This document shows, piece by piece, positions 565-24,380 of a stretch of 28,089 bases of DNA. Both the position numbers and the translations under genes were made by a program. The notes below the pieces were generated by a model, which saw nothing but the letters and a program-made list of their open reading frames with translations, searched no databases and was not told the origin of the DNA. Each line of letters begins with the position of its first letter. Within the stretch, counting starts at the first letter, position 1. The DNA is taken from assembly GCA_041736305.1 (NCBI GenBank), contig JBGSTX010000050.1:1-28089 (forward strand), given 5' to 3'. This stretch comes from Oligoflexus sp. GTDB taxonomy: Bacteria; Bdellovibrionota_B; Oligoflexia; Oligoflexales; Oligoflexaceae.

Positions 565-661
565 GTTGCATCGGCCTTTTCATTCAAGACAAAATACAAA
601 GATTCTTCTAGTATCTTGCCCTCTACCTCTCTAATTGTCCCGATTTCAACAAGGTAGCGCC

Positions 662-1666
662 ATGAGACTGAAAAGCACCTTCCTTACCCTATTGAAATTG
701 TTGTTCGCAGCCCTGCTGCTCTTGTGGCTGATGCGCTCCGGACAATTGGACTTTAGCCAGCTTAATAAACTTCTGGTGGAAGGGGACCTGGCTCTTGCCA
801 CCGTGGGCTACTTCCTAATTGGCCCCGTACTTTTGACAACTATGCGTTGGAAACTCCTCCTCGAGGCCGCCGACTATGTCATAGGTTGGAAGCGGGCTTT
901 TCAGCTCCAGTTGACCGGGTTTTTTTTCAATACGGTAATGCCTGGAGCAGTAGGTGGCGATCTTGTCAAAACAGCATATGTAATTCGTGATAATCCCGAT
1001 AAATCAAAAGCTCTGGCAATGATGACTGTGGTTTTGGATCGAATTATCGGTCTCTCGGGATTGTTTTTCGTTGGCTGGTTGCTAGTCATGATCAATTATC
1101 GGCAAATAGTTGCGGCACCCAAACTCTGGCCGCTCATTACCCTGATGAGTTTGATTAGTCTTGGCTTTGTGGTGTTTTTTACGACTGCGCTCTACCATTA
1201 TAAGAAAAGCGATCCGATACTCAAACTTTTAGCTTACCCAATTCCCGGTTTTAGCCTAATTCTAAAGCTCTATAATGCACTACGCACCTATCGCTACGCG
1301 CGCGGAGCGATACTGAAGTGTCTCGTTTATTCCTTTCTTGTACAGATTGCCAGCCTTCTGCTCTTCTATTTCATGACTATTAAAGTCCTAGGCTACGCTC
1401 CAGCTTTTGGACCTATTGCCACGATCTTTCCGATGGGTATCCTCACGACCGCTATTCCCATCACTCCGGGGGGATTGGGCGTGGGCCATGTGGCTTTCGA
1501 TCGACTTTTCAATATGATTAACCTTAGCCACGGTGCTACGGTTTTCAACCTATATGTCCTATCCCAACTTTTCTTGAATCTAAGCGGTATCATAAGCTAT
1601 CTCAGTCTCAAGAAAACTCCCCAGTCTTTAGGACTATCGAGCAATGCCGCCCATCCTTCGGCCTAG
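662..1666 (+). CDS. Lysylphosphatidylglycerol-synthase TM-domain / flippase-like membrane protein (UPF0104/YbhN family)
   Basis: Multi-TM protein with family motifs RWKLLL, GFFFNTVMPGAVGGD, LDRIIGL and IPITPGGLGV. ATG 662 preferred over TTG 635. Confidence 0.85.
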   Translation: MRLKSTFLTLLKLLFAALLLLWLMRSGQLDFSQLNKLLVEGDLALATVGYFLIGPVLLTTMRWKLLLEAADYVIGWKRAFQLQLTGFFFNTVMPGAVGGDLVKTAYVIRDNPDKSKALAMMTVVLDRIIGLSGLFFVGWLLVMINYRQIVAAPKLWPLITLMSLISLGFVVFFTTALYHYKKSDPILKLLAYPIPGFSLILKLYNALRTYRYARGAILKCLVYSFLVQIASLLLFYFMTIKVLGYAPAFGPIATIFPMGILTTAIPITPGGLGVGHVAFDRLFNMINLSHGATVFNLYVLSQLFLNLSGIISYLSLKKTPQSLGLSSNAAHPSA

Positions 1667-3338: not shown

Positions 3339-4208
3339 ATGCGATCGCTTAAGAGGATGAGCCCAATGCTGACTCATGAAAGTGTGCTCCCAGGCAGCTG
3401 GTCGTCTCTTTTTCTTCAATCTCACCCCGATGCGCCCCGTAGCTGGCAAGCAAAGGTCCCTTTCGAAATCAAGCAAGGCAGCTATATCGTCAAGACAGCA
3501 GGAACGCTTGAAGAGTTTCAGGCAGTGATAGCCCTGAGGACTTCGGTTTTTCTCAAGGAATTTGCCGGCAAAGATACGGAAGACTTCGATTTTGATGCCA
3601 TTGACAGCGACAGTGACTTTCTGATCATAAAGGATGCAAGGTCTGGCGATATTCTTGCTTCTTATCGACTCATTTCCTCGCGGTTTTCCAACAAATTCTA
3701 CTCTAGCTCTGAGTTCACTCTCGATGAATTTCTGAGGACGCCCGATTCTAAGCTCGAACTCAGCCGCGCCTGCGTTCGGGCTGACAAGCGTTCCTCGGGA
3801 ATATTCGTCCACCTGCTATGGCGGGGAATAGCTGAATATGCAAGTCGCACGGACACACGCTATCTATTTGGCTGTAGCAGTGTCCAGACTCTCGATCTTC
3901 GTCAGCTCGTCTCAGTCTATCGCTACCTACACAGTGAGAAAGCTTTGGATACCAGCTTCGGTATCAACCCTCTGGACGCGTTCAAGATCATCGATATGAA
4001 CGGGCTACTGAGCTTTGGGACAGCTCATGTATCAACAGCCTCAGCCCAGCTACTCCCCCCTCTCCTCCTTGCCTACCTCAAAGCTGGGGCGCGAGTCTAC
4101 GGTGCACCGGCCTTCGATCAGGACTTCAATTGTCTCGATCTCCTGACCATACTTGATTTCCAGCAGCTCTCTGGAGCCCATGCTAGGAAATACGTCTTAT
4201 CTTCTTGA
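3339..4208 (+). CDS. olsB: GNAT N-acyltransferase, OlsB-like (N-acyl-ornithine/aminolipid synthase)
   Basis: ALRTSVF..E, D.D..D, ASYRL, FYSSSEF, LELSRACV, LLWRGI, YLFGCSS, LPPLL.AYL..GA, PAFDQDFNCLD: typical of the OlsB/Acetyltransf_5 family. The true start may be ATG 3366 (AAGAGGA SD). Confidence 0.8.
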   Translation: MRSLKRMSPMLTHESVLPGSWSSLFLQSHPDAPRSWQAKVPFEIKQGSYIVKTAGTLEEFQAVIALRTSVFLKEFAGKDTEDFDFDAIDSDSDFLIIKDARSGDILASYRLISSRFSNKFYSSSEFTLDEFLRTPDSKLELSRACVRADKRSSGIFVHLLWRGIAEYASRTDTRYLFGCSSVQTLDLRQLVSVYRYLHSEKALDTSFGINPLDAFKIIDMNGLLSFGTAHVSTASAQLLPPLLLAYLKAGARVYGAPAFDQDFNCLDLLTILDFQQLSGAHARKYVLSS

Positions 4209-4220
4209 GGGCAGATAGAC

Positions 4221-5264
4221 GTGAGAGATAAGTCTGGCATCGATTACTTTCCAGAACTTCTGGAGCTCTTCAAATGCGCTGAAAACTTGGGCCATTCGGG
4301 AGTCGTGCGTGAAGAGCAGCGCGTTTCCTTTGAGAAACATACCTTCCCTATACTCAGCTTTCGCTTTGGCCCCGATGATGTCACGCTACCGACCCTAGTA
4401 TTCGTTGCTGGGGTCCACGGGCTCGAAAAAATCGGGACGCAAATCGTAACGTCTTTCTTGAAGTCCTTCATTCATCTGCTCGCCTGGGACCGATCGCTCA
4501 TCAACCTTTTAAAAGATTGCCGAATTCTCTTCTATCCCCTCGTGAATCCAGTAGGCATGTACAAAAATTTGCGGTCGAATGGCAATGGGGTCGACCTCAT
4601 GCGGAACGCTCCTATCGATGCCCTTCGCGAAGGATTGCCGCTGGTTCGCGGTCATCGACTCAGCCCCAAGCTTCCTTGGTACCGAGGCAAATTAGAAGAC
4701 CCGATGGAATTAGAAGCAGAGACTCTCTGTGAATTTATTCGGCGTGACTGCTTTGGCTCAAGCTGTTCCTTGGTCCTAGATGTCCACTCGGGATTCGGTC
4801 TGATCGATCGCCTGTGGTTTCCCTACGCATACTCTCAAGAATTTTTTCCTGACGCATCGCGGGTTCTAGCTCTCAAAAAGCTCTTCGACAAGAGCTTTCC
4901 GCATCATGTTTATACGATAGAGCCCCAGCACCACTCCTATACGACCCATGGCGACCTCTGGGACTACCTTTATCTCGAACACCGAAAACGCTCGCAAGAA
5001 GGCATTTTCATCCCTCTTTCGCTCGAGATGGGATCATGGCATTGGGTTCGTAAGAATCCTCGGCAAATATTCAGTAGTTTTGGAATTTTCAATCCCGTCC
5101 TCCCGCACCGGATCAAGCGGGCTGAACGCCGTCACTTTTTGCTTCTTAATTTCTTACTCAAAGCTATCGTATCGACTGATCAGTGGGCTTTTATCGATGC
5201 TAAGCGCCTCGCATTCTTCGAAAAATGCTCCGAGCAGCTCTGGTATTCGGTTCGCGGCCGCTGA
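4221..5264 (+). CDS. M14-family zinc carboxypeptidase/amidohydrolase (DUF2817-like)
   Basis: GVHGLE (HxxE), VNPVG, RSNGNGVDLMRN, LDVHSG (third Zn ligand), LEMG (catalytic Glu); no signal peptide. Confidence 0.85.
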   Translation: MRDKSGIDYFPELLELFKCAENLGHSGVVREEQRVSFEKHTFPILSFRFGPDDVTLPTLVFVAGVHGLEKIGTQIVTSFLKSFIHLLAWDRSLINLLKDCRILFYPLVNPVGMYKNLRSNGNGVDLMRNAPIDALREGLPLVRGHRLSPKLPWYRGKLEDPMELEAETLCEFIRRDCFGSSCSLVLDVHSGFGLIDRLWFPYAYSQEFFPDASRVLALKKLFDKSFPHHVYTIEPQHHSYTTHGDLWDYLYLEHRKRSQEGIFIPLSLEMGSWHWVRKNPRQIFSSFGIFNPVLPHRIKRAERRHFLLLNFLLKAIVSTDQWAFIDAKRLAFFEKCSEQLWYSVRGR

Positions 5265-5273
5265 GATTAAAGC

Positions 5274-6110
5274 GTGGAAACACCAATGCCCTTTCTTGAG
5301 ACCGACAAAGGCAAAATATTTTTCGCAGAGCTAGGGAGCGGCCCCCCACTCTTGCTTCTGCGCGGCTTAGGTCGATCGTCGCGCTACTGGCTAGGATTCG
5401 AGGAAATCTTAGCTAATAGTTTTCACGTGATCTTGATGGACCAGCGCGGGCTGGGACGCACCAGCGTCCCAGCTGCATGGACTGATTCGACAGCAGAACT
5501 AGCTAGGGACGTTCTCGACTTGATGGACCATCTCGATATCCAGGCCTTTCATGTTTTCGGCCTTTCCCTTGGCGGCATGATCGCTTTGGAACTAGCTGCA
5601 ACAGCTCCCAGGCGTATCCTCAGTATGATAGTCGCCAACAGCTCCTCTCAGGGAGGCTGGTCCTGGCGCATCAACCCCTGCGTGCTGCCTTCCCTGATCT
5701 ATGGCGGCTGTCGAGGCCGTTTTCATCAGAGCCTCGTCCGAGTTCTTTTAGGATCGTCGACGAAAGAAGAATTGGTGGAAAGCATTCTCAAGAAATGGCA
5801 GGACATCCGTGAGGACGAAGGATTCCCGCTTCTGACCATTGCCAAGCAACTTTGCATGGCCCATAGATTCTCTGTTGGCGCCCTTTTTCAAGAAAGCTCG
5901 GTCCCGATTCGCCTTCTCATACTTTCGGGAGACAGAGATCGTCTCGTGCCGGCAAGAAATAGCGATATTCTTCATAGCAAGCTGCCAGGCTCCCTCCGAA
6001 TGATACTCAGGGGTGCTGGTCATGAAATCGCTGTGCAGCATGAAAATGAGCTGGAACAAATAATTCAGGACTTTTCGGAAGAACTCTTTACTGCAAAGGG
6101 GACAGTGTGA
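5274..6110 (+). CDS. Alpha/beta fold hydrolase
   Basis: LRGLG, DQRGLGRT, nucleophile GLSLGG, GDRDRLVP, GAGH. Start possibly ATG 5286 (MPFL...). Confidence 0.9.
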   Translation: METPMPFLETDKGKIFFAELGSGPPLLLLRGLGRSSRYWLGFEEILANSFHVILMDQRGLGRTSVPAAWTDSTAELARDVLDLMDHLDIQAFHVFGLSLGGMIALELAATAPRRILSMIVANSSSQGGWSWRINPCVLPSLIYGGCRGRFHQSLVRVLLGSSTKEELVESILKKWQDIREDEGFPLLTIAKQLCMAHRFSVGALFQESSVPIRLLILSGDRDRLVPARNSDILHSKLPGSLRMILRGAGHEIAVQHENELEQIIQDFSEELFTAKGTV

Positions 6111-6964
6111 ATCTCCGTCTCTGCTATCGGGTATTCTTCATAGCTGGGTTTCTCATCAACTGCTTCCTTCTGCTGGCTTTTCTGAGTTTGCTGGGACTGA
6201 TTCCGTCTCCGCTCTGGAAATCATTGCCGATTTACTTGAGCCAAGCGAAAACCTGGATCACTCATAAAAGCTTTCGAATTATCGCCAACATTGCCGGTCT
6301 TTCAGTAACAAGCGAGGGCTTCAGCGAGCTTCCCGACCAGCCTTACATTCTGCTAGCCAACCACGTGTCATACTGGGATATTATTGCTATTATTAGCATA
6401 ACCCCCATAAATTTTATTGCCAAAGAGGAAGTTCGGTCTTGGCCCTTTTTTGGCCCTTTCGCGCGGATGTGCGAGGTTATCTTCGTGCGGAGAGATTCGG
6501 CTCTCAGTCGGGCCCAGGCACTCTTCTCGCTGGCCACTCGGAGCCGTCGTCAGGCCTATTGCATATTTCCCGAAGGGACAACCACAGCCGCTGACTTCCC
6601 TGTTTGGGAAAACTGGTTTCGTGGCAATATATCCTTGGCTGTTCGGCCGGGCCTCCCCATCTATACGCTCGGTCTCCATTACCGCAAGCAACGCGAGCAG
6701 GCCGCCTGGATAGGGGAAGTAAGCTTTTTTCCTCACCTACTCGCGAGTCTGGGTCGTCCTCGAACTGAAATATTCATCTCACTATCCCGTTTGGATTTAG
6801 ATGCTCCAGACTCTCAAAAGAGCAGCCTGCACGATCTGGCTCATCGAGCCTTTTTGCAGGTGAGAGCCCATTGCGAAGCAGCCAAGTCGCTGGCCCTGCT
6901 TTCGGAACCTAGAGCCCTCGAAAGCTTTCCAAGGCCTGGGCTTTGGATCCAAAGATCACAGTAG
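6107..6964 (+). CDS. PlsC-type lysolipid O-acyltransferase, OlsA-like
   Basis: NHVSYWD (HX4D), FIAKEEV..WP, FVRRD, IFPEGTT, W.G...F.PHL. The GTG start overlaps the upstream TGA (GTGA). Confidence 0.85.
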   Translation: MNLRLCYRVFFIAGFLINCFLLLAFLSLLGLIPSPLWKSLPIYLSQAKTWITHKSFRIIANIAGLSVTSEGFSELPDQPYILLANHVSYWDIIAIISITPINFIAKEEVRSWPFFGPFARMCEVIFVRRDSALSRAQALFSLATRSRRQAYCIFPEGTTTAADFPVWENWFRGNISLAVRPGLPIYTLGLHYRKQREQAAWIGEVSFFPHLLASLGRPRTEIFISLSRLDLDAPDSQKSSLHDLAHRAFLQVRAHCEAAKSLALLSEPRALESFPRPGLWIQRSQ

Positions 6965-7083: not shown

Positions 7084-8319
7084 ATGGCTATCGAACGCTT
7101 TCTCATAGTTGATGACAATACAGGCAATGCGCTGTTTTTCGAGATGATTCTCAAAGAACTTGGCTATTCTAAAATATTTACTTCGCCAACTGGCGACGAT
7201 GCTTTTATACAGGCTGACAAGAATCATATTCAGTTCTTCATCGTCGCCTGGGAACTCAGAGGGCTTCCTGGGACAATATATGTCCAGAAAGTCCGCTCTA
7301 AGCGCAAACGGCGTTTTGCTCCCTGTATTATTTATTCGAAGCGCATGGCGAACGATGACGTAGCTTTGACCAAAGAACTCGGATTTAAAGACATTCTAGG
7401 CATGCCCTTCGACCGAAATGCTGCCAAGGACTTGATTAAAAATATCATCGACTACGAATCCAATATTCATCCTCGCGAAAACCAGCTTAGAAAAATCGAA
7501 ATGTATCATCTTGAAGGTCACCCTATGGAGGCTTTCAAGCTCTTCAGCGATGACCTTTTTTCACCCGGCCCTTTTCAAACCCGAGCACTGCTCTCTGGGG
7601 CCGAAGTTATGATGTCTCTTTCGAAGTACGATAAAGCTGAAAAATGCATTGCTGACGCACTGCGGAATTTGCCAGACAATAATCGCGCTCTGCAACTCAA
7701 AGCCAAGCTTTTTTCCCGCAAAGGCATGCACGCCGAAGCGGTCGGCATCCTTGAGAAGCTCGTTAGTGTTTCTCCACGTAATCTTTCGAATAAGATTACT
7801 CTCGGCTCAGCCTACATAGATGCAGATCGCCACGAGGATGCTCGCCGTGTTTTTGCGGATGTAATGAAGGATGATCCAAACAGTCAAGACGCCAAAGATC
7901 AGATGGCTACTTTGGAATTCAAAGAAGGCAATTTTACCTTAGCTGAGCAGCTTATTGCTGAGACTGAAAATGGCAACGAGCTAGCCCGAGCATTCAATAA
8001 TCTCGCCATCTCCCAGGTGAGCAAAGGTCTCTTCGACGAGGGCATCGCGACCTATAGCAACTCCATGCGCATGCTGGCCGACAAAGCCCGGCTCTACCTC
8101 CTTTACTATAACCTTGGACTTGCTTATCGCAAAAAAGGCGAGCTCGAAAAGAGCTTTGACGCACTTGGAAAAAGCTACATCGCAGACCCCAGCTACGAGA
8201 AAGCCTACGTCGCTATCGCCAGGGTTGCACAAGAGCTCAAGGCCAAGGGGATAAAACCCAAACCAGAATTAGTTAAGGAAATCAAAGGAGCTCGCCAGAC
8301 TCTTAAGCAATCTGCGTAG
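7084..8319 (+). CDS. Pseudo-receiver domain plus tetratricopeptide repeat protein
   Basis: N-terminal FLIVDD, with beta3 FFIVAWEL (Asp->Ala) and LGMPF (Lys->Met). C-terminal TPR motifs LGSAYIDA, FNNLAI, YYNLGLAY. Confidence 0.85.
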   Translation: MAIERFLIVDDNTGNALFFEMILKELGYSKIFTSPTGDDAFIQADKNHIQFFIVAWELRGLPGTIYVQKVRSKRKRRFAPCIIYSKRMANDDVALTKELGFKDILGMPFDRNAAKDLIKNIIDYESNIHPRENQLRKIEMYHLEGHPMEAFKLFSDDLFSPGPFQTRALLSGAEVMMSLSKYDKAEKCIADALRNLPDNNRALQLKAKLFSRKGMHAEAVGILEKLVSVSPRNLSNKITLGSAYIDADRHEDARRVFADVMKDDPNSQDAKDQMATLEFKEGNFTLAEQLIAETENGNELARAFNNLAISQVSKGLFDEGIATYSNSMRMLADKARLYLLYYNLGLAYRKKGELEKSFDALGKSYIADPSYEKAYVAIARVAQELKAKGIKPKPELVKEIKGARQTLKQSA

Positions 8320-8389: not shown

Positions 8390-9184
8390 ATGCCTTTTCT
8401 TACCCAAACTCAAGCCACCCTCTACTACGAAATCGCCGGGCAAGAAAACGATGGCCCATGGATCACCATGATCAACGGCCATACGCGCAGCAGCCGAGAT
8501 TTCAAAATCATTGCTAAGGCACTTAGTGCACAAGGATATCGCTGCCTAATTTTTGACAATCGGGGCTCCGGCCTCAGTAGCTACGAGGGGAAGCTTTCTT
8601 GGGATCAACTGCTAGGCGACGGGTTTGCTCTCTGGGAAGCCTGCAAGATCACCCAGACCCACCTGATCGGAATATCGATGGGGGGGATGATCTGCCAGGC
8701 CTTAGCTGCCAAGTATCCCGAACGCGTGAAGAGCCTACTTCTCATTTCGACCGCTGCCACCGTGGAGCATCTTCAGTCCTTGGATTTTGCTCCCTGGGGC
8801 AATACCCTAGAAAGCGTGCTCGCCCGCTATGCTCAGTACTTGACTCCTAGCTTTCTTGAGAGAAATCGCCCTCTCGTCAAAGCTATTGCCAAGCAGACCT
8901 TGGACGCGATCGAAAACCATGGGTTTCTTGAGAAGGCTCAGGCGCAGCATGATGCAATTCGCACGCTGGATAATCGAGATATTCTAGCTCAGATAAAAGC
9001 CCCAACTCTCATCATTCATGGTCTCGACGATGCGGTGATACCAGCGGCTGCGGGCCGGGAGTTGGCCGCTGCTATACCCGAGGCGCAGATCAAGCTCATT
9101 CCTGGGGCCGGCCACCTCCTTCTCGCAGAAAATGGTAAAGGTCTTGGGGAGGACATTCTGAACTGGGTCGGTCAATTTCCATAA
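8390..9184 (+). CDS. Alpha/beta fold hydrolase (enol-lactonase-like)
   Basis: AAGGAG SD; DNRGSGLS, GISMGG, PTLIIHGLDDAVIP, GAGH. Confidence 0.9.
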   Translation: MPFLTQTQATLYYEIAGQENDGPWITMINGHTRSSRDFKIIAKALSAQGYRCLIFDNRGSGLSSYEGKLSWDQLLGDGFALWEACKITQTHLIGISMGGMICQALAAKYPERVKSLLLISTAATVEHLQSLDFAPWGNTLESVLARYAQYLTPSFLERNRPLVKAIAKQTLDAIENHGFLEKAQAQHDAIRTLDNRDILAQIKAPTLIIHGLDDAVIPAAAGRELAAAIPEAQIKLIPGAGHLLLAENGKGLGEDILNWVGQFP

Positions 9185-9217
9185 AAAAAACCTGCTGGAG
9201 CTATTGCTCCAACAGGT
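9183..9217 (-). terminator. Rho-independent terminator of 9239..10231
   Basis: Minus strand reads ACCTGTTGGAGC-AATA-GCTCCAGCAGGT followed by a T-run; 12 bp stem with one G-U pair. Confidence 0.85.
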
Positions 9218-11491: not shown

Positions 11492-12088
11492 TCAGGTCAT
11501 GGAGGCGATAAGCTGGATATCAGATTCGGGCATCCCCAGCTCAGAGGCTACCTGCGAAGGTTTGAGGCCCTTCGAAAGTAAAAAGCGAGCATCGCTGTAC
11601 TTTTTGTCTTCAATTTCGGCAAGAACTTCTTCGTAGGGTATGCGTTTATCAAAAAATCGGCTGAGCTTCTCGGCCCGAGCCACGGATTTTTGAAGAATTT
11701 GGCGCTCTTCCTGGCTTTTCTGAACTAGGGCACTGAGTCGGGTGCGATGCTTTGCTATCAAGTCTAAGGGGGCCTCAAGCTGCTGCCGCGCCTCAGCTAA
11801 GGCGACTTCAACTTCTTTGGAGACGAAACTTGAACCCGACTTCAGCTCCATCTCTGCCTCAGTGGCAATGACGGTGACCCGTTCGTAAAGCTGCTTCATC
11901 TCGGTCTGTTTTTGGTCCATCTCGTCGTTTATCGCGATCCGCAGCTCTTTAAGAAGCCTATGCTCATGATCAATTTCGCGCAAGACACCCATTACATCGG
12001 GACTTTGGCGCCGACGCAAGGCAATGGAAACGAGACCGATAAGGACCAGGTCTATGGCTATGAGCGCGATTAAAAAGAGATTGTTCAT
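11492..12088 (-). CDS. Membrane-anchored coiled-coil protein with DUF2802-like C-terminal helical domain
   Basis: N-terminal TM, coiled coil, C-terminal YSDARFLLSKG...VASELGMPESDIQLI; last gene of the flagellar operon. Confidence 0.65.
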   Translation of the reverse strand: MNNLFLIALIAIDLVLIGLVSIALRRRQSPDVMGVLREIDHEHRLLKELRIAINDEMDQKQTEMKQLYERVTVIATEAEMELKSGSSFVSKEVEVALAEARQQLEAPLDLIAKHRTRLSALVQKSQEERQILQKSVARAEKLSRFFDKRIPYEEVLAEIEDKKYSDARFLLSKGLKPSQVASELGMPESDIQLIASMT

Positions 12089-12097
12089 GAAAGAGCC

Positions 12098-12523
12098 TCA
12101 GCCTTCTTGTAGAAACGCCTTGAGAACCTGCTCGTCAACCTCGTCCATATTTACGGTGCGAGCCAGTACGATTTTCTTTTTGCCGCGCTTTCCGACTTCT
12201 TCGGTCGACACGACCTTGGCCAGGATCTTAAAATTTCCTGGAGTATCGATGCGACTGTAGTCGACGAAGCGTTGCTTGCGCTCCCAATAATCCGGAATAT
12301 TGATATGGATCTTGAGGAGCTGCCCTTCCTCATAGGCTTCGCTCGCACGAAACTGGATACCGTAGGGGCTGATATGCACCGTCTGAGCCTCGTCTTGATT
12401 GAGTTCAGGACTAAGACCGTAACGGGCAACAGCTAAGGAAAGCCGGCGATTCGAACGCGGGTACTTTTTCACAAGATCTTCGTTGAAAGAAGGATTCGAG
12501 TTTTCTTCCGGTTCTACACTCAT
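12098..12523 (-). CDS. PilZ-like domain protein
   Basis: RxxxR (RSNRR) and a variant DxSxxG (HISPYG), followed by a PilZ-like beta pattern (YEEGQLLKIHI, AKVV). Confidence 0.6.
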   Translation of the reverse strand: MSVEPEENSNPSFNEDLVKKYPRSNRRLSLAVARYGLSPELNQDEAQTVHISPYGIQFRASEAYEEGQLLKIHINIPDYWERKQRFVDYSRIDTPGNFKILAKVVSTEEVGKRGKKKIVLARTVNMDEVDEQVLKAFLQEG

Positions 12524-12561
12524 ACTGCCACCTTTCAGCGGGTAAAGAGACGCTTGCGAAG

Positions 12562-12975
12562 TTATTTTGCAGCGTTCTGTTTTTTGACCATCTGATCTAT
12601 TTTATCCAACTTGTCTTTCAAAGCCTGGCCCGTAAAAGGCTTGACGATGTAATTGCTAACCCCAGCTTTGACGGCTTCGATTATGTTTTCTTTTTCAGCT
12701 TCAGCCGTCACCATCAGGAAAGGGAGATGCTTGAACTTGGGGTCGGCTCGTACCGTTTTCAAAAACTCAAGACCCGTCATGTTCGGCATATTCCAGTCAG
12801 AAACGATCATTTCAAAGTCACCGTGGTTTTGCACCAGGCGATAGGCTTCCTGGCCATCTTCAGCTTCTGTAAAATTGTTGAAGCCGTTTTGCTTCAAAAG
12901 AGTCTTGACGATGCGGCGCATGGTTGGAAAGTCATCTACTACGAGAATCTTCAGATCGGGCTTCATGATGGTCAT
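12562..12975 (-). CDS. cheY: Chemotaxis response regulator CheY
   Basis: [39 protein letters not shown]. Confidence 0.95.
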
Positions 12976-12994
12976 AGCGTACTCCTGGGCGTTC

Positions 12995-13753
12995 TTAGTC
13001 TGAAAGAAGTGGCTTAAGCTTCGAGCGTAATTTTTCGACGGCCTGCGTATGTAGCTGGCTCACCCTTGATTCAGTAACTTCGAGGATCTTACCAATTTCC
13101 TTAAGGTTGAGATCTTCGTAGTAGTAGAGCGATAGGACAAGCTTTTGCTTTTCAGGGAGTTCTTCTATGTGTTTGACCAGAAGATCCCGAACGCCTTTGC
13201 TTTTCAGCTGCGTGAAAGGATTTTTAGAGTTGACGTTTTCCAGACTCTCGAGCAAGCTCTTGCGATCCTGCTGATTAGGTCCCGAAAGTTCATCGATCGA
13301 AAGCAGCGTGACTGCCTTAACCTTGGCAATCATATCGTAGTATTCTTCGAGCTCGATACCGAGGGCGGATGATACCTCCTCATCGGAAACAGCTCGACCT
13401 AGCTTCTGCTCCAGCTCAGCATAGGTTTTTTCGATTTTCTTGGCTTTATCGCGGACTGAGCGAGGCACCCAATCCTGCGATCGAAGTTCATCGAGGATGG
13501 CTCCCCTGATTCTGAACTCCGCATAGGTTTTGAATTTGTTATCCCGCGAAGGATCGTACTTCTCGATCGCATCCATGAGACCGATAACACCAGCGCTGAT
13601 GAGGTCGTCGATGTCGATGTTCGAAGGAAGACGCGCAGCGATTCGCTGAGCCACAAAGCGGATCAAGGGAGCATAGTCCATGATCAGCTGATCTCGCAGC
13701 TTCCCATCGACTCCCTTAGTGTCCTGCTTATAGCGTTTGACCAGCCCTTTCAT
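12995..13753 (-). CDS. fliA: RNA polymerase sigma factor FliA (sigma28)
   Basis: [44 protein letters not shown]. Confidence 0.97.
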
Positions 13754-13780
13754 CGAAATATCTCCCTTCCTGAGTGCAAT

Positions 13781-14635
13781 TTAGAGGATACTGACGGATT
13801 GCAGGGCGGCTTTTGGAAACATGAGATTTTGAAAGCCTCGACGGCCCGCCTGCTGCGATCTCTTCTGCAACTGCTCGAGTATCCGCCTGGTAATTTCGTT
13901 CCAGGCTTGACCCGAGCGCGTATGGGCAATGTGATCTCCAGCAGCTCTCTGTGCCATGACTGATCTCTCGAGGAGATCATCTCGTGGCACGGTTCCTCCA
14001 AGCATGACTTCACTGTAAGAATTTCTCTTGGCTACGTCGGCGAAATTTTGGAATATCTTGAGCCCCTGGCCTTCATTCAGAACTTTATTGATCACCATAT
14101 AGAAGTTCTTAGCCCCGTGAGTCTCGCACATTATCTTAATGAAAGCGTAGGCGTCGGTAAGGGCATGGGGTTCGGGAGTCGTCACAACGACTACCGCGTC
14201 GGCTATCGAATTGAGATGAATCACGTTCGTGGAAATACCGGCTCCCGTATCGACTATGAGCAAATCATAGTTTCGCGCAACTTCGTCAATTTTTTCGAGC
14301 AGGTTGATGCGTTGAGCAAGGCTCAGTTCGGCCAGTCCGGAAATGCCTGAACCACCGGGAATGATATGGATTCCACGGGGGCCCTCGAGGACCACTTCCT
14401 TCATGCTGACTCTTTCGTTTAATGCATCACTTATATTGTACCGGGCGCTGAGCCCAAGGACAATGTTCACATTCGAAAGCCCGAGATCACCGTCAAGAAT
14501 GAGGGTTTTGTAACCCATCGCCTGGGCATTCATAGCCATGTTCACAGCCGTAATCGTTTTTCCTACCCCACCCTTGCCGCTCGCTACGCTGATCACTGAG
14601 GGACTTTTCGGACTTTGAATCATAGATCTTTGCAT
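13781..14635 (-). CDS. flhG: MinD-like flagellar number regulator FlhG/FleN
   Basis: Deviant Walker A SGKGGVGKT, DGDLGLSN, VDTGAGI, TPEPHALTDAYA; lies between flhF and fliA. Confidence 0.93.
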   Translation of the reverse strand: MQRSMIQSPKSPSVISVASGKGGVGKTITAVNMAMNAQAMGYKTLILDGDLGLSNVNIVLGLSARYNISDALNERVSMKEVVLEGPRGIHIIPGGSGISGLAELSLAQRINLLEKIDEVARNYDLLIVDTGAGISTNVIHLNSIADAVVVVTTPEPHALTDAYAFIKIMCETHGAKNFYMVINKVLNEGQGLKIFQNFADVAKRNSYSEVMLGGTVPRDDLLERSVMAQRAAGDHIAHTRSGQAWNEITRRILEQLQKRSQQAGRRGFQNLMFPKAALQSVSIL

Positions 14636-14641
14636 TCCTTC

Positions 14642-15826
14642 TTAAAGACCAAAAATTCTCTCGACCACTCGCTCGCGACTCGCTTTTTCCAAATCTTCAG
14701 GGACAGAGCGTCCTACCCCAAAGTAGCTCAAGGGTAAGCCCCAGCGCAGACAGAGATTAAATATTTCGCCGAAACTCCACGACTCATCCAATCGATTGAA
14801 GATGAGACTCTGAATGCCCAGCGGAGAAAAGCCCCGGATCATCCGGTCCATTTGGCTTTCTTTTTCGGTAATTGAAAGAGCTAGGTGGAAGCGGATGGGG
14901 AGATCCATGTCTTTAATACTGAGAAGATCGCCCAAATCATCTTTAATCCTGGGGCATTCGGCAGTGGTATCGACCAGGCAAAGATCCCAATCCTGTGATC
15001 TTTCGCCCAAACTGGCTATCTGACTCGCGTCGTCTATCGACTCATAGCGGATATTTAATACCTTAGCTAGAATCCGCATCTGTTCTCGTGCCGCCAGACG
15101 ACGATTATCGTAGGAGAGCAGGAGGAGTCGATTGCCGTATTTTTGCTGGTAGTGAGCGGCTATCTTAGCCACCGATGAGGTCTTACCGCTGCCGGACGGA
15201 CCCACGACGACGTGGATCGAACGTTCACCAGCTTCTGGACTCCATGAGGCGCTAATCTTCAGCCGTTTCATCATCCAGCGGATGGCCTGGGCTTGATAGT
15301 ATTCATGGTGCTGATCAGGATTTTCTCCTTCAGGAGGCGGCAGGCCTTTAAGGTACTCGCCTAAGCGGTTCAGCTCCGCCTCATCCACTCCCATGAGCTG
15401 GAGTCGCTGAAAGATCTTCCGCATAGCAGCCGGTGCATCACCGAGGAAACTACCTTTCCGCTTTACATATTCATCGAAGACGAAGGTTCGCAGTTCCTGA
15501 AGACCTGCATCGATCCTGAACAGATCGTTCTTTTTCGCCAGATCTTCGCCTAAGGTTTTGATGCTTCGCTCAATACCGCGAAAGTAGTCGACCATTTCGA
15601 TCAAATTATCTTTGATGCCACTATTATCATGGCCCCTATCACGCGTCGCTCCCGACTTGCTGGTGGCTTCGTTGTTGGCGGCTGCGGTCACTTCGTAGAT
15701 CTTGCCCTTCGAACCCTCGAGGCGCTTTTCACGAGTGTTGAGTATGACAGCATCCTGGCCGAAATGATTTTTGACCGCTTTCAATGCATCGCGCATCGTG
15801 AATGCTTCGAAGGTCTTCATTTCCAT
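14642..15826 (-). CDS. flhF: Flagellar SRP-type GTPase FlhF (atypical G motifs)
   Basis: N-terminal KTFEA..M..AL..VK..FG.DAVIL, GPSGSGKT, VPEDL; position after flhA. Confidence 0.92.
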   Translation of the reverse strand: MEMKTFEAFTMRDALKAVKNHFGQDAVILNTREKRLEGSKGKIYEVTAAANNEATSKSGATRDRGHDNSGIKDNLIEMVDYFRGIERSIKTLGEDLAKKNDLFRIDAGLQELRTFVFDEYVKRKGSFLGDAPAAMRKIFQRLQLMGVDEAELNRLGEYLKGLPPPEGENPDQHHEYYQAQAIRWMMKRLKISASWSPEAGERSIHVVVGPSGSGKTSSVAKIAAHYQQKYGNRLLLLSYDNRRLAAREQMRILAKVLNIRYESIDDASQIASLGERSQDWDLCLVDTTAECPRIKDDLGDLLSIKDMDLPIRFHLALSITEKESQMDRMIRGFSPLGIQSLIFNRLDESWSFGEIFNLCLRWGLPLSYFGVGRSVPEDLEKASRERVVERIFGL

Positions 15827-15869
15827 TTATATGCTCCTGTCAAACTCTGTACCGATTGACGCCTAGGCC

Positions 15870-17981
15870 TTAGAGAGAAACTATTCCAATGGACTTGGTC
15901 TGGATACCAGCCGGTATTTCATCAAAAGCCAGGACGACTACCCCCGGTATGAAACGATTTACCAGCTGGCGTATATCCCAACGAATGAGCGATCCACAGA
16001 GTATGATGGGTTGCGTACCAGTCGATTGGAAAGTTTCGAGAGCTTCCGCTATGCGATTGAGTATGCGCTGAGCGATTTCGGGCTCAAGCTGCAGAGAGGT
16101 TGAACCGTCCTCCCGGTGCTGTAAACCGGCCACTATAAGGTCTTCGACCGCCCTATCGAGGGTGATCACAACCAAGCGATCGTCTGGCGACAGGTACTTT
16201 CTCATGATACCACGACCCAGCGCTTTACGTACATAACGGGTCAGGAGATCCGGGTTCTTGATCGAGCGGCAATGATCGGCTAAGGTCTCGAAAATAGAGC
16301 GAAGGTCACGGATGCTTACCCTCTCAATCAGTAGATTCTGTAGCACCTTCACGACCTCACCTAGGCTGAGTCGGTCACCCGCGATCACTTCTTCTACAAC
16401 CTTAGGCGCTTCTTCTTTCAATCCTTCAATGAGGTTTTGAGCTTCCTGGCGACCGAGGAGTTCAGCTGCATGTTCCTCAATGAGCTTGGTCAGGTGAGTA
16501 ACCACGACTGTAGCGCAGTTAACGACAGTATAACCGCGGAAGCTAGCTTCCTCTCTTTGGCTTGATCTGATCCAGATCGCATCGAGCCCATAGGCAGGTT
16601 CTTTGCCCGGGATGCCAGGAATAGGTTCGACGATATCGCCGGGATCCATAGCTAGATAGTAATCTGCCATGAGACTGCCTTTGCCGATAGCATTGCCCTT
16701 CAAGAGGATCTGGTAGTCGCCTGGCTTCAGCTGAATGTTGTCTTTGACCATGACCATAGGCACCACGATACCCATTTCCTGGGCAAACTGCTTGCGAGCA
16801 GAAACTATGCGTTCCAGGACTTCCCCGTCCTGCTGTGCATCGACCAGAGGAATGAGCCCCACTCCGACTTCAAGTGATAGTGTTTCTATATGGAGGAGAG
16901 ATTCAACGGCATCTTTTTTAGTGTTTTCTTGCTGTCCGGCTTCTTGCTCTTTGACAGCAGCAGCTTCCTTCTTTTCAACCAGATTGCGAGCCGCATATCT
17001 GCCAAGGAAAAACAGCACTACAGATAAAAGCCCAAAGGGCACAAGCGGAAGACCCGGAACGATAGCCATCATCCCCAAAAGGACCGCACACATATAAAGA
17101 GCACGTGGATTATTAAAAAGCTGGTTATTCATGGTCTGACTGAGACCCTCGTCAATCGCTCCGGCCCGAGTAACGACGATACCAGCAGCGGTCGAAATGA
17201 TCAGGGCCGGAATCTGGGAAACAAGTCCGTCACCGACCGTCAAGAGAGTGTAGAGCTGAGCCGATTCCGCAAAGCTCATTCCATGCGTCATAACACCAAG
17301 AATCAGGCCAACGATGATGTTGATCGCTGTGATAATGATACCGGCAATTGCATCCCCACGGACAAATTTAGACGCACCGTCCATGGCCCCGAAAAAGTCA
17401 GCTGACTGCTCAACTTTTTGCCGTCTCTCCCTCGCCTCTTTGCGATCAATCAAACCGGCGTTCAGTTCGGCGTCTATGGCCATTTGCTTGCCCGGCATCG
17501 CGTCCAAGGTGAAGCGCGCTCCTACTTCCGCAACGCGCCCAGCACCTTTGGTGATTACGATGAAATTGATAACGACCAGAATGGCAAAGAGAACGAAACC
17601 GACAAAGTAGTTGCCACCAATAACGAAATCACCGAACGAGGTAATGACTGCACTGACGTGACCGGTATGGGCGTGCAGAAGAATGGCCCGTGTGGTGGCT
17701 ACGTTCAGAGCAAGACGAAAGAGAGTGGTGATGAGAAGAAGGGTTGGAAAAGTCGAAAATTCCAGGGGCTCTCTCACATAGACTGCTACCATGAGAATCA
17801 CGAGCGAGGAAGCCACTGAGGTGGCAAGCAGCATGTCGAGCATCCAGCTCGGCATGGGCAGGATCATCGTGAAGATGATCGCAACCAAAGCCAATGCGAA
17901 TTGAATATCGGGCGACTGCATGATCGTCACCCAGGCTGGCTTCGCCTTATCTCGGCTCTTCGCTGCCACCGTACTTGCCAT
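15870..17981 (-). CDS. flhA: Flagellar export gate protein FlhA
   Basis: RVAEVGARFTLDAMPGKQMAIDA, FFGAMDGASKFVRGDAIAG, GDGLVSQIPAL. Confidence 0.98.
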   Translation of the reverse strand: MASTVAAKSRDKAKPAWVTIMQSPDIQFALALVAIIFTMILPMPSWMLDMLLATSVASSLVILMVAVYVREPLEFSTFPTLLLITTLFRLALNVATTRAILLHAHTGHVSAVITSFGDFVIGGNYFVGFVLFAILVVINFIVITKGAGRVAEVGARFTLDAMPGKQMAIDAELNAGLIDRKEARERRQKVEQSADFFGAMDGASKFVRGDAIAGIIITAINIIVGLILGVMTHGMSFAESAQLYTLLTVGDGLVSQIPALIISTAAGIVVTRAGAIDEGLSQTMNNQLFNNPRALYMCAVLLGMMAIVPGLPLVPFGLLSVVLFFLGRYAARNLVEKKEAAAVKEQEAGQQENTKKDAVESLLHIETLSLEVGVGLIPLVDAQQDGEVLERIVSARKQFAQEMGIVVPMVMVKDNIQLKPGDYQILLKGNAIGKGSLMADYYLAMDPGDIVEPIPGIPGKEPAYGLDAIWIRSSQREEASFRGYTVVNCATVVVTHLTKLIEEHAAELLGRQEAQNLIEGLKEEAPKVVEEVIAGDRLSLGEVVKVLQNLLIERVSIRDLRSIFETLADHCRSIKNPDLLTRYVRKALGRGIMRKYLSPDDRLVVITLDRAVEDLIVAGLQHREDGSTSLQLEPEIAQRILNRIAEALETFQSTGTQPIILCGSLIRWDIRQLVNRFIPGVVVLAFDEIPAGIQTKSIGIVSL

Positions 17982-17993
17982 TTACGAGAACTC

Positions 17994-19073
17994 CTAGCTG
18001 TTGCGCGTGATCTTTTTACCCTTGAGCAAGAATACGTAGCGAATGACCTCTGAGACGGCTCGGTAGAGGGATTCAGGGATTTCTTGGCCTTCTTTACAGA
18101 TTTTGTAGAGAGTTCGGGCCAGAGGTTTGTTTTCGATAATGGGAATATTATTCTCCTTAGCGACCTCTTTCATACGCAGAGCGATGAAGTCTTGCCCTTT
18201 CGCTAGCACTATCGGAGCTGACATACCGAGCTCGTAACGGATAGCAACGGCGAAGTGAGTCGGGTTGGTGATGACGGCCGTCGCTCCTTTAGTCGCGGTT
18301 ACAGCCTTCGCCATCGCTATCTCACGCTGCATCCGCTTCATTTTAGCTTTGACATGCGGATCCGATTCACGGTTCTTGTATTCTTGCTTAAGCTCTTGCA
18401 TGGTCATTTTCAGCTTTTGCTCAAGGGAGAAGAAGCTATAGATGAAGTCACCCGCTGCGATGAAGACCATCATCCCCATAACCGACCACATGAGGTTCCA
18501 GGAGATAGAAGCCCAGTAGTGCCAGGCATCTATAAAGGGCATGCGCATGAGACCTGGAACCTTTGTCCACTCGCTTTTCAGACTGAGAAAGGTCACTGAA
18601 CTAATGATAATCAGTTTGCCAATGCTCTTAAGCAGCTCGACCACTGTTTCCCAGCTCACCATTTTGGTGATGCCAGTTATCGGATTCATCTTGGAAAAGT
18701 CTGGACTTAGACGCTTCCATGACCAATTCAGTCGAGTCTGTGAAAAGGTTATGAAAACAGATGAAATTATCAGCACCGCAAACAGGGGAGCGATCATAAT
18801 GAAGAATTCTCGTGCTACTCCTGCTAGATAGAAGTAGGCGGTTTGCTCGCTCATGACCGAAATATCGAGATGCTGGAACCTCGCCGTGAGAAAATGCTGG
18901 AGAAGTTCGACAAGATGCACGAGATATAGGCCCAACAGCCCCGTCACTGATGCCAGGACGAAGACGGAAGTAACTTCGCGAGAGACCGCTATCTGCCCCT
19001 TTTCCCGGAACTCTTCTCGTCGCTCCGGTGTGGCTTCTTCGGTCTTGTCCTGACCACTTTCTTCTTCTGCCAT
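17994..19073 (-). CDS. flhB: Flagellar export switch protein FlhB
   Basis: DKTEEATP.R, NPTH autocleavage motif, ENKPLARTLY. Confidence 0.97.
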   Translation of the reverse strand: MAEEESGQDKTEEATPERREEFREKGQIAVSREVTSVFVLASVTGLLGLYLVHLVELLQHFLTARFQHLDISVMSEQTAYFYLAGVAREFFIMIAPLFAVLIISSVFITFSQTRLNWSWKRLSPDFSKMNPITGITKMVSWETVVELLKSIGKLIIISSVTFLSLKSEWTKVPGLMRMPFIDAWHYWASISWNLMWSVMGMMVFIAAGDFIYSFFSLEQKLKMTMQELKQEYKNRESDPHVKAKMKRMQREIAMAKAVTATKGATAVITNPTHFAVAIRYELGMSAPIVLAKGQDFIALRMKEVAKENNIPIIENKPLARTLYKICKEGQEIPESLYRAVSEVIRYVFLLKGKKITRNS

Positions 19074-19082
19074 AGAAACCTC

Positions 19083-19865
19083 TTAGGGGGTCAATCCAGC
19101 CATTACACTCGCGATCTGCAGACGAGCTCCTTCAAAATGGTGACCAGCCCACTCAGGAAAGAAAGGAAGGCACGCTAAATAGACAAAGAGGCCGACGAAA
19201 AAACCAACCGGAAAGCTCATGGTGAAAATATTGATCTGGGGCACGGCTCGGGCGATGAGGCCCATGGCCGTATTGGTAAACATAAGTGCAACTAGGACCG
19301 GCGCCCCGAGCTGGATGGCAATCCGGAATACGTCTGCCGTCCCTTGGATCATGAGGGTACCTAGACCCTTACTCGGTATGGCGCCTCCTGCGGGAATAAG
19401 CGCAAAAGTACGTGCGATCGCATCAAGATACATGTGGTGTAGATTGAGGCTTAGAAAAATCAGCATCATCACTACGCGATGAAAGGCTGTGAAGGCATTC
19501 ATTTGCACATCGGCATCAGGCATGAAGAGGTCAGCCAAGCCAAAGCCCATCTGATAGCCGACGATGCTAGCTGCCATAACGATAGCATCGAACGCCAGAC
19601 GGCCGACAAAGCCCATGAAGAGGCCGATGCAAACTTCGCGTACGATAAGCGCGACGAACTCGATCGTGTCAGTGGGAAAGGCCTTGATCCAGCCCAAAGG
19701 AACAATGCCATAGATGGCGCATGAAATGGCTACTCCCAGAAGTATACGTACTTGGACGGGAGTAGGAGAATCGCCAAAAAAAGGCAGCGCAAAAATCAGC
19801 GCGCTGACGCGGGTAAAGATGATGGCGCCAGTTAAGACAAACTCGACGCTGAGGCCGTAGATCAT
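19083..19865 (-). CDS. fliR: Flagellar export protein FliR
   Basis: LPFFG...P..VR, GYQMGFG, RAVPQINIF..FP. Confidence 0.95.
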   Translation of the reverse strand: MIYGLSVEFVLTGAIIFTRVSALIFALPFFGDSPTPVQVRILLGVAISCAIYGIVPLGWIKAFPTDTIEFVALIVREVCIGLFMGFVGRLAFDAIVMAASIVGYQMGFGLADLFMPDADVQMNAFTAFHRVVMMLIFLSLNLHHMYLDAIARTFALIPAGGAIPSKGLGTLMIQGTADVFRIAIQLGAPVLVALMFTNTAMGLIARAVPQINIFTMSFPVGFFVGLFVYLACLPFFPEWAGHHFEGARLQIASVMAGLTP

Positions 19866-19874
19866 AACTGCCTA

Positions 19875-20144
19875 TTAGTGACTTACGTTGGAGATCTCTC
19901 GAAACATGCTGATAGTAAAGTTCATCAGCAGGCGCAGAATCCAGGGTCCACAAACGACTATTGCAGCCCCCATGGCGACAACTTTGGGGATGAAGGCAAG
20001 GTTCTGCTCGTTGATTTGAGTCGCCGCTTGAAAAATAGACACAAGAATACCCACCACAAGAGTAGCGATCAGGGCAGGCGCTGCCGTCTTCATGGTAATC
20101 AGAATAGTTTTCCAAGCGATGTCGAGAACCATTTGTTCTGTCAT
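19875..20144 (-). CDS. fliQ: Flagellar export protein FliQ
   Basis: VSIFQAATQINEQNLAFIPK. Confidence 0.96.
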   Translation of the reverse strand: MTEQMVLDIAWKTILITMKTAAPALIATLVVGILVSIFQAATQINEQNLAFIPKVVAMGAAIVVCGPWILRLLMNFTISMFREISNVSH

Positions 20145-20158
20145 CAGATTCTCCTTCT

Positions 20159-20926
20159 CTATCCGAAGCTGCGGACCAAAGATTCAACTATGAGCCCCCA
20201 GCCGTCGACCAGAACGAATAAGACCAATTTAAAGGGAAGCGCCACCACCGTTGGTGGTAGCATCATCATCCCCATCGCCATAAGTAGTGCGGAAACCACC
20301 ATATCGATGACGAGGAATGGGATATAAATGAGGAAGCCTATCTGAAAAGCCGTCTTCAGTTCAGAGACCACGAAAGAGGGGATAAGCACCCGCAGCGGCA
20401 CATCATCAGGAGACTTAGGCTTTGGCAACTTGGCGATATTAAAGAACACGCCAAGGTCAGGTTCCTTCACCTGGCTCATCATGAACTTCCTCAGCGGGTT
20501 GATTGCTTCCTTGACGGCCTGTTCCTGCGTGATAGCTTTCTCGATGTAGGGCGTGTAGGCCTTTTCATTGATGGAGTCGATCACCGGACCCATAGTAAAG
20601 AACGTCAAAAACAGCGAAAGCCCCAGTATAACTTGGTTAGGGGGCATGCTTTGCGTGCCGAGTGCCTGTCTCACAAAGCTCAACACTACGACGATGCGCG
20701 TGAACGAGCTCATCATGAGGAGTATGGCCGGAGCAACCGCGAGAATCGTGAGAAGAGCTATGATCTTGAGCGCTGGTACAAAAGCTTCTGGGTCATCAAC
20801 GTCATTAAAGTCAATGCTGACGCCGGGCAGCTTGCTTTCGGCATAAAGAGCCTTTGGCACAAGTACGCTGCCCATGGTGAAAAATAGCATAAAGCAGCGC
20901 AGCCATTTGACGATAGACATCCACAT
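20159..20926 (-). CDS. fliP: Flagellar export protein FliP
   Basis: SFTRIVVV..RQALG.Q.MPPNQ, SELKTAFQIGF, LPFKLVLFVLVDGW. Confidence 0.97.
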   Translation of the reverse strand: MWMSIVKWLRCFMLFFTMGSVLVPKALYAESKLPGVSIDFNDVDDPEAFVPALKIIALLTILAVAPAILLMMSSFTRIVVVLSFVRQALGTQSMPPNQVILGLSLFLTFFTMGPVIDSINEKAYTPYIEKAITQEQAVKEAINPLRKFMMSQVKEPDLGVFFNIAKLPKPKSPDDVPLRVLIPSFVVSELKTAFQIGFLIYIPFLVIDMVVSALLMAMGMMMLPPTVVALPFKLVLFVLVDGWGLIVESLVRSFG

Positions 20927-20940
20927 GATGACCTTCTTTC

Positions 20941-22143: not shown

Positions 22144-22167
22144 CCGGAAATCTCCCTTTGAGGGCGT

Positions 22168-22590
22168 TTAAGGTGTGTTGCTCATATCGCCAAGACCAAA
22201 CTGCGAAACAACATCGGTCAGACGAACGCCAAACTTCTCATTGACGACGACAACTTCACCCATCGCCACTAATTTATCGTTGATGAGGATTTCCATCGGT
22301 TCACCGGCGATTTTGTCCAGTTCGATAACCGAACCTTGTCCGAGCTGGAGCAGGTCATTGACCAGCATCTTGGTCCGGCCCAGTTCGACAGATACCTTAA
22401 GAGGTACGTCGAGAATCATCTTCAGCTTGGAAAAATCCGTTCGGGCGAGACGTGAATCTTCGGGCGTCATCACCACATTTTCGTCTTTGTCACCGCCCTT
22501 GCCATCGCCATCGCCATTGGCCTGTGCCAGTGCTTCGTCAAAGTCGGTACCAAGACCAAAATCTTCCGCATTGAGATCCTGCTCAGCCAT
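22168..22590 (-). CDS. fliN: Flagellar motor switch protein FliN
   Basis: [43 protein letters not shown]. Confidence 0.97.
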
Positions 22591-22623
22591 ATGCTTTATC
22601 CCTCTTAAATTTGGAACAGCTTA

Positions 22624-23607: not shown

Positions 23608-23619
23608 CGAAGACGCTCC

Positions 23620-24351: not shown

Positions 24352-24380
24352 CTGAAGTCCCCCCACGCCAGAGGCAAGGT

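Follow-up and report, generated by a model that had tools for sequence, protein, structure and literature searches.

The 28,089-nt stretch of Oligoflexus sp. DNA analysed here (contig JBGSTX010000050.1, hereafter the window) contains a four-gene locus at 3339-6964 in which an OlsB-like N-acyltransferase of the GNAT type and an OlsA-like, PlsC-family O-acyltransferase are separated by a zinc carboxypeptidase homologue of family M14 and an alpha/beta-fold serine hydrolase. Our principal finding is that this M14 family has a functional link with OlsB/OlsF-type enzymes, a link that is well supported by genome content and gene neighbourhoods and that we regard as highly probable. For the locus itself we propose, with our confidence about evenly divided, a two-step synthase of an acyloxyacyl aminolipid between whose genes stand those of two soluble cytoplasmic hydrolases, which would act on that lipid and serve its turnover or homeostasis.

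The M14 family is restricted to genomes that also carry Pfam PF13444 (Acetyltransf_5), the family to which the OlsB-like gene belongs. Among 104 genomes of the window's phylum that are at least 85% complete, M14 is present in 65 and PF13444 in 72, and PF13444 is found in all 65 M14 holders as against 7 of the 39 non-holders. The 201 genomes of the order that includes Moritella give a similar picture, with M14 in 44 and PF13444 in 126 (44/44 M14 holders vs 82/157 non-holders), and in 14 of the 44 M14 genomes the PF13444 gene lies within 3 kb of M14. PF13444 is also present in 10/10 further genomes of other lineages, these having been picked for carrying M14. All of these counts come from genome lists compared by eye.

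The genes are also physically coupled. Genes within 4 kb of M14 were counted with several queries per family at two sets of loci: 20 hand-picked Oligoflexales loci, and the best 80 of at least 588 relatives in species-representative genomes, 60 of the 80 being flanked on each side of M14 by 3 kb or more; the sets overlap, and some loci are on the same contig (e.g. L023 and L039). The Oligoflexales loci contain a GNAT gene in 19 cases, PlsC in 15, the hydrolase in 4, all four genes in 3 and none of the partners in 0, with GNAT beside M14 in 19/20. Among the best 80 of at least 588 loci the hydrolase is present at 63, GNAT at 23, all components at 10 and none at 9. In 53 of the 100 loci M14 is followed on the same strand by a homologue of the window's hydrolase. 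With starts chosen by a heuristic, 16 of these 53 pairs have a 4-nt overlap between the end of M14 and the beginning of the hydrolase gene.

The components are joined in at least six distinct gene orders in two phyla. The window has GNAT-M14-hydrolase-PlsC, and L028 has GNAT-PlsC-M14-hydrolase. At L026 rightwards M14 and PlsC genes converge on leftwards hydrolase and GNAT genes, and L049 carries these four genes too, but M14 is at the opposite flank. OlsF-like, M14 and hydrolase genes follow one another on the same strand at L052, L053, L058 and L066; the order is M14-hydrolase-OlsF at L072 and L080; an M14-hydrolase pair converges on leftwards GNAT and PlsC genes at L071; and M14 simply converges with GNAT in sister-order genomes. 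In Moritella the M14-hydrolase pair abuts a bona fide OlsF (819.4 bits; cut-off 620). The other neighbours of M14 are not conserved across the loci. Apparent M14-hydrolase fusions of ~573 aa at three high-GC Burkholderiales loci (L054, L063 and L079) were rejected as spurious open reading frames, the hydrolase frame being open upstream in a frame other than that of M14; Pfam matched the hydrolase part alone.

The four genes at 3339-6964 are all on the + strand. The GNAT gene (3339..4208) encodes 289 aa, although translation probably starts at M10 (3366), which has an AAGAGG 9 nt upstream. The M14 gene (4221..5264) encodes a 347 aa cytoplasmic protein. The hydrolase gene (5274..6110) encodes 278 aa and probably starts at M5 (5286), the point at which alignments with orthologues begin, and the PlsC gene (6107..6964) encodes a 285 aa protein with an N-terminal membrane anchor. 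The original prediction described four co-oriented genes with 12-bp and 9-bp gaps and a GTGA overlap, and reading the junctions directly gives exactly this: 12 nt between GNAT and M14, 9 nt between M14 and the hydrolase, and a 4-nt GTGA overlap of the hydrolase and PlsC genes, just before which stands AAAGGGGA. A consensus scan located no terminator-like site at the three junctions and only weak ones inside the genes. Hydropathy scans of the four proteins place a membrane segment in PlsC alone (residues 3-38); M14 has no signal or transmembrane segment, and GNAT and the hydrolase have no hydrophobic segment. The claim that all four are members of the named families with intact catalytic motifs likewise holds, given the Pfam matches and the catalytic residues seen in the translations and alignments that are described below.

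The M14 protein matches Pfam PF00246 (Peptidase_M14) at 54.4 bits (cut-off 21.6) and, marginally, DUF2817 at 24.5 bits (cut-off 23). By sequence it is a member of a large uncharacterised family, with 5862 proteins at E <= 1e-20 whose names are confined to 'M14 family zinc carboxypeptidase', 'DUF2817 domain-containing protein' or 'hypothetical'. Its closest relatives among the matches listed are in metagenome-assembled genomes of Oligoflexus sp. (66% and 59% identity), and carriers of the family include culturable Moritella, Herbaspirillum, Undibacterium, Amphritea and Bdellovibrio. The zinc ligands H66, E69 and H189 and the catalytic E269 are invariant in an alignment of 16/16 orthologues, as are R118, R128 and Y240, and the counterparts of the zinc-ligand and catalytic residues are invariant in all 19 sequences of a second alignment. 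The motif that we take to be of the DLNRN type has Met in place of Asn.

An AlphaFold model of M14 (pLDDT 84.8, pTM 0.88) has Foldseek matches to the carboxypeptidases CPA4, CPB and CPT (E 7e-13, probability 1.00, TM-score 0.62-0.67, 16-19% identity), and a profile search of PDB sequences finds CPA4 at E 1e-11. The alignment with CPA4 begins near the start of the mature enzyme, and M14 has no pro-segment or signal peptide; a C-terminal helical extension occupies residues 295-342 of the model. The conserved Arg and Tyr residues align with the carboxylate-binding residues of carboxypeptidases, an assignment that draws partly on a profile hidden Markov model alignment and partly on established motifs, and the equivalences to carboxypeptidase A positions 253, 255 and 256 are tentative, coming from a single such alignment. 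M14 was originally compared with the AstE/aspartoacylase type, but it has no Pfam match to that family (PF04952) at E <= 0.01, and in both sequence and fold its nearest relatives are carboxypeptidases A4, B and T. With these M14A metallocarboxypeptidases it shares the fold, the HxxE...H zinc ligands, the general-base Glu and the carboxylate-binding Arg and Tyr, but it is only 16-19% identical to them, lacks their signal peptide and pro-domain, carries the C-terminal extension, and would act on a lipid rather than a peptide.

We predict that M14 is an amidohydrolase whose substrate is a lyso-aminolipid, an N-acyl amino acid in which the alpha-carboxylate is free. The proposed reaction, hydrolysis of an N-acyl amino acid amide, is the same as that of the N-acyl amino acid amidohydrolases, including AstE/aspartoacylase and the mammalian PM20D1 and NAAA. 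PM20D1 (family M20) and NAAA (an Ntn hydrolase) have folds unrelated to M14, and to our knowledge none of these enzymes is bacterial or encoded beside an aminolipid synthase. Some M14 orthologues in three sister-order genomes (G304, G312 and G313) have one or two in-frame stops, and an M14-adjacent hydrolase gene elsewhere (G023:C5:264887-265614) is broken by a TAG. Either decay of these copies or faults in the assemblies may account for this.

The outer two genes of the locus resemble known aminolipid synthases. GNAT matches PF13444 at 63.4 bits (cut-off 22.4) and is the sole PF13444 protein in this 92.7%-complete genome; it retains, in an alignment, the residues common to the C-terminal N-acyltransferase domain of bona fide OlsF. 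PlsC matches PF01553 (Acyltransferase) at 65.5 bits, and its translation contains NHVSYWD, which corresponds to the HX4D motif, and FPEGT. The top named NCBIfam matches are OlsB for the first gene and OlsA for the fourth, but the scores miss both OlsB equivalogs (94.6 bits against a cut-off of 350, and 90.8 against 320) and both OlsA equivalogs (88.8 and 72 bits, cut-off 300) so widely that we describe the two as OlsB-like and OlsA-like and not as equivalogs. GNAT is predicted to make the lyso-aminolipid, an N-(3-hydroxyacyl) amino acid, by forming its amide bond, and PlsC is predicted to add an ester-linked second acyl chain. The pair is in this respect a further member of an already known type: the OlsB/OlsA and OlsF synthases are of the same PF13444 and PF01553 families, and both window genes are in one operon, the difference being that here two hydrolase genes separate them.

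The hydrolase matches PF00561 (Abhydrolase_1) at 99.1 bits, and its catalytic triad (S98/D222/H250) is invariant in an alignment of 20/20 sequences. A structure model (pLDDT 82.7) is closest by Foldseek to the carboxylesterases 8v16 and 6eb3 (TM-score 0.76), with further matches to Est816, RutD, ABHD6 and the phospholipase A PlaF, and we predict that it is an esterase for an O-linked acyl chain. Its relationship to the hydrolases that accompany M14 elsewhere was examined with a profile built from 19 hydrolases encoded directly after M14 and run over 61 related genomes, in which the scores form two tiers. Strong-tier hydrolases (>200 bits) lie within ~1 kb of M14 in seven genomes (G022, G023, G035, G037, G038, G047 and G057), directly downstream of it in six of these, and lie away from M14, or in a genome that has no M14, in seven others (G019, G024, G025, G040, G046, G049 and G053). 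The window hydrolase is in the middle tier (75-135 bits), at 87.9 bits, and is the best match of its genome. It is 22-30% identical to members of the M14-linked hydrolase family, and with an Amphritea M14-linked hydrolase as query it is the sole match in the genome, among 13 candidates.

Several observations bear on how specialised this hydrolase is. In one Oligoflexales family (G025, G040, G049 and G053) a strong-tier hydrolase is present in 4/4 genomes, all of which lack both M14 and PF13444; at two of its loci (L125 and L126) the hydrolase gene is directly beside a PlsC-like gene, and at another (L130) no PlsC-like match was seen near it. The neighbours at L125 and L126 may be a deacylation/reacylation pair acting on some other lipid. 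The presence of the hydrolase family without M14 or PF13444 shows that it is not specific to aminolipids, and it probably hydrolyses lipid esters in a broader range of settings; the suggestion that the window enzyme is dedicated to the aminolipid is thus not upheld. At a separate locus (L119, on contig G042:C50) PlsC-like, GNAT-like and middle-tier hydrolase genes are co-oriented, and no M14 was found in that 82%-complete genome.

From the gene anatomy, catalytic residues, folds, and phyletic and neighbourhood coupling of M14 to OlsB/OlsF, all of which are seen directly, we infer as follows what the substrates are, which way the reactions run and what purpose they serve in the cell. Lyso-ornithine lipid, an N-acyl amino acid whose alpha-carboxylate is free, is a minimal carboxypeptidase substrate, and the second acyl chain of ornithine lipid is an ordinary carboxylic ester. 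GNAT would make an N-(3-hydroxyacyl) amino acid, most likely of ornithine or lysine, and PlsC would then esterify its 3-hydroxyl. The alpha/beta hydrolase would take the ester-linked chain off again, and M14, binding the free alpha-carboxylate in the manner of a carboxypeptidase, would cleave the amide and so set free the amino acid together with a 3-hydroxy fatty acid. Jointly the four enzymes could set the level of the aminolipid and of its detergent-like lyso form and permit removal and recycling. We further suggest, tentatively and with somewhat less than even confidence, that M14 and the hydrolase constitute a pathway, so far undescribed in bacteria, that degrades or balances aminolipids of the ornithine type. 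It would be composed of an O-deacylase and a carboxypeptidase-fold lyso-aminolipid amidohydrolase, would occur widely among Bdellovibrionota, betaproteobacteria and gammaproteobacteria, and would here be fused in one operon with the synthases.

There are precedents for such an arrangement. PA0920-PA0919 of Pseudomonas is an aminoacyl-phosphatidylglycerol synthase/hydrolase operon, and another is the lpiA-acvB operon of Agrobacterium, in which, according to the available portions of the report, a lysyl-phosphatidylglycerol synthase and its hydrolase control the level of the lipid (PMC13197417). The likeness is that a synthase shares an operon with a hydrolase by which its modification is undone (PMC13197417). 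The differences are that the lipid there is a tRNA-dependent aminoacyl ester on phosphatidylglycerol and the enzyme families are not the same, that AcvB is periplasmic whereas the window M14 and hydrolase are without a signal or transmembrane segment, and that in the window two bonds would be cut by two enzymes. The proposed order of cleavage also has a parallel in macrophages, which, in the available part of the account, degrade ornithine lipid by ester cleavage followed by an amide cleavage attributed to NAAA (PMC12710885).

The serine hydrolase was originally assigned to ester cleavage by matching it to the bond that PlsC makes. Its carboxylesterase-like structure agrees with this, but the alpha/beta fold is also that of OlsI, the O-acyltransferase of a third ornithine-lipid pathway in the accessible sections of its description (PMC12493201), so that cleavage is not the sole reading of a serine hydrolase in this context. 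OlsI of planctomycetes resembles the window hydrolase in being an alpha/beta-hydrolase-fold protein within an ornithine-lipid operon (PMC12493201, same sections), but it partners the GH3-like OlsH and not OlsB or OlsF, and the window already has an O-acyltransferase of the PlsC type. The window hydrolase scores 34.9 bits on the NCBIfam OlsI equivalog (cut-off 385), weaker than its generic esterase matches.

A number of points weigh against synthesis coupled to turnover, the ambiguity of the alpha/beta fold being one of them and the occurrence of strong-tier hydrolases in M14-less genomes another. The window's exact four-gene order is found in no other genome searched, and a search of metagenome contigs with the window hydrolase gave one distant relative (32% identity) and no second copy of the four genes. 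All 10 same-genus loci with sufficient flank have PlsC divergent from GNAT-M14 and no hydrolase, and orthologues of the window hydrolase (41-46% identity) in sister genomes are at unrelated loci with no GNAT, M14 or PlsC nearby; the exact order is therefore specific to this genome among those searched, and the synteny expected of a co-conserved four-gene operon is not seen. The hydrolase gene appears to have moved here recently, and the move re-establishes a neighbour relation that is common in other genomes. The window hydrolase also scores only 87.9 bits on the profile on which true members of the M14-linked family exceed 200. The scores of GNAT and PlsC fall far short of the OlsB and OlsA cut-offs; a synthase and hydrolases in one compartment and one operon would run a futile cycle unless regulated or selective; and the co-occurrence counts of 65/65 and 44/44 overstate the statistical support because related genomes are not independent. 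What stands of the synthesis-plus-turnover idea as first put forward is thus the set of families, their motifs and the tie between M14 and OlsB/OlsF, whereas operon conservation, the AstE type and an aminolipid-specific hydrolase do not.

Among other explanations, the best is one of quality control, which we think unlikely: M14 would hydrolyse mis-made or surplus N-acyl amino acids and guard the membrane from lyso species, with the esterase having a minor or separate part. Its targets would be lyso-lipid that is not promptly O-acylated or the products of a promiscuous N-acyltransferase, and the OlsF and OlsBA enzymes do take lysine besides ornithine according to available passages of a 2026 review (PMC12971839). 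The adjacency of GNAT and M14 in Oligoflexales (19/20) is tighter than that of GNAT and PlsC (15/20) or of M14 and the hydrolase (4/20), the cytoplasmic location of M14 and the hydrolase, like that of the synthase, suits editing better than bulk degradation, and the need to avoid a futile cycle favours it too. Outside Oligoflexales, however, the usual situation is that M14 lies at a distance from the synthase, with the hydrolase as its coupled partner (63 of the best 80 of at least 588 loci), which is better fitted by a separately regulated two-step breakdown.

A second alternative, which we consider improbable, is that the locus builds a distinct aminolipid: the alpha/beta protein would be an OlsI-like O-acyltransferase or transacylase and M14 would trim or remodel the head group, for example by removing the C-terminal residue from an N-acyl peptide. 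OlsI itself is a precedent for an O-acyltransferase that has the alpha/beta-hydrolase fold (PMC12493201, in the sections available), aminolipids with di- and tripeptide head groups exist according to the accessible text of PMC12971839, and the hydrolase family is beside PlsC-like genes in some genomes. The low OlsI equivalog score, 34.9 bits against a cut-off of 385 and under the generic esterase matches, argues otherwise, as do the presence of a PlsC-type O-acyltransferase both in the window and in OlsF and the lack of any peptide-forming enzyme in the conserved neighbourhoods.

It is very improbable that M14 supplies the head group by deacylating a small N-acyl amino acid (N-acetyl-ornithine or N-succinyl-ornithine, for instance) and so feeds free ornithine to the N-acyltransferase. 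The chemistry of M14 would suit any N-acyl amino acid with a free carboxylate, and the strict co-occurrence of the family with PF13444 is as expected, but the conserved and often overlapping pairing with an esterase-like hydrolase is left unexplained, M14 has no AstE/aspartoacylase Pfam match, and no genes of arginine or ornithine metabolism recur in the neighbourhoods. Finally, that two housekeeping hydrolases sit by chance between lipid genes is hardly credible, for although no other genome searched shows the exact order, orthologues of the window hydrolase lie elsewhere in sister genomes and its family also occurs without aminolipid genes, there is not one M14 holder without PF13444 among the 65 and 44 genomes and the adjacency recurs in at least six gene orders and two phyla with other neighbours not conserved.

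The rest of the window is unrelated to the four-gene locus. Upstream, at 635-1666 (+) and 1.7 kb from the aminolipid genes, is a membrane protein with an LPG_synthase_TM (MprF flippase-like) domain (117.6 bits) and no synthase domain; it was considered as a member of the system and rejected, there being no counterpart near GNAT-M14 in 20 related loci. A response regulator and a rhodanese are also encoded upstream. Downstream, a response-regulator receiver fused to TPR repeats (7084-8319, +) is followed by a second alpha/beta hydrolase (8390-9184, +), which is PcaD-like at 130.8 bits, under the cut-off of 255.85, and after which there is a strong terminator-like hairpin (9190-9217). An ordinary flagellar export and switch cluster occupies 11492-24366 (-), with FliL, FliM, FliN, FliO, FliP, a FliR-type protein, FlhB and FlhA, together with an SRP54-type FlhF-like GTPase, a MinD/ParA-type ATPase, a sigma-70-family (FliA-like) factor and a CheY-like receiver.

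When phosphate is scarce or cells are stressed, ornithine lipids and their aminolipid relatives take the place of phospholipids; three routes for their synthesis are known, as are several modifications. Lipids of this type are a predicted product of about half of all sequenced bacteria (PMC12493201). Searches of the literature, with subscription journals outside their coverage, found no paper on a bacterial aminolipid or ornithine-lipid hydrolase or on a link between OlsB and M14, which agrees, within that coverage, with the original statement that no pathway of this kind has been characterised. A text search of the accessible portions of the 2026 ornithine-lipid review (PMC12971839) and a 2024 aminolipid review (PMC11631085) found no mention of degradation, turnover, catabolism or peptidase, and the one 'hydrolase' mentioned there is OlsI; removal or recycling of ornithine-type lipids by bacteria therefore appears to be undescribed in those portions. 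As far as could be found, there is likewise no description of the conserved coupling between OlsB/OlsF genes and an uncharacterised M14 family that in most cases is accompanied by an esterase-like protein. Returning to synthesis coupled to hydrolytic turnover, the M14 family, found only in genomes of the OlsB/OlsF type among those surveyed, is a concrete candidate for bacterial aminolipid breakdown. If this is correct, a carboxypeptidase-fold enzyme would be assigned a lipid substrate, and the 'synthase plus hydrolase' logic of aminoacyl-phosphatidylglycerol would extend to phosphorus-free lipids.

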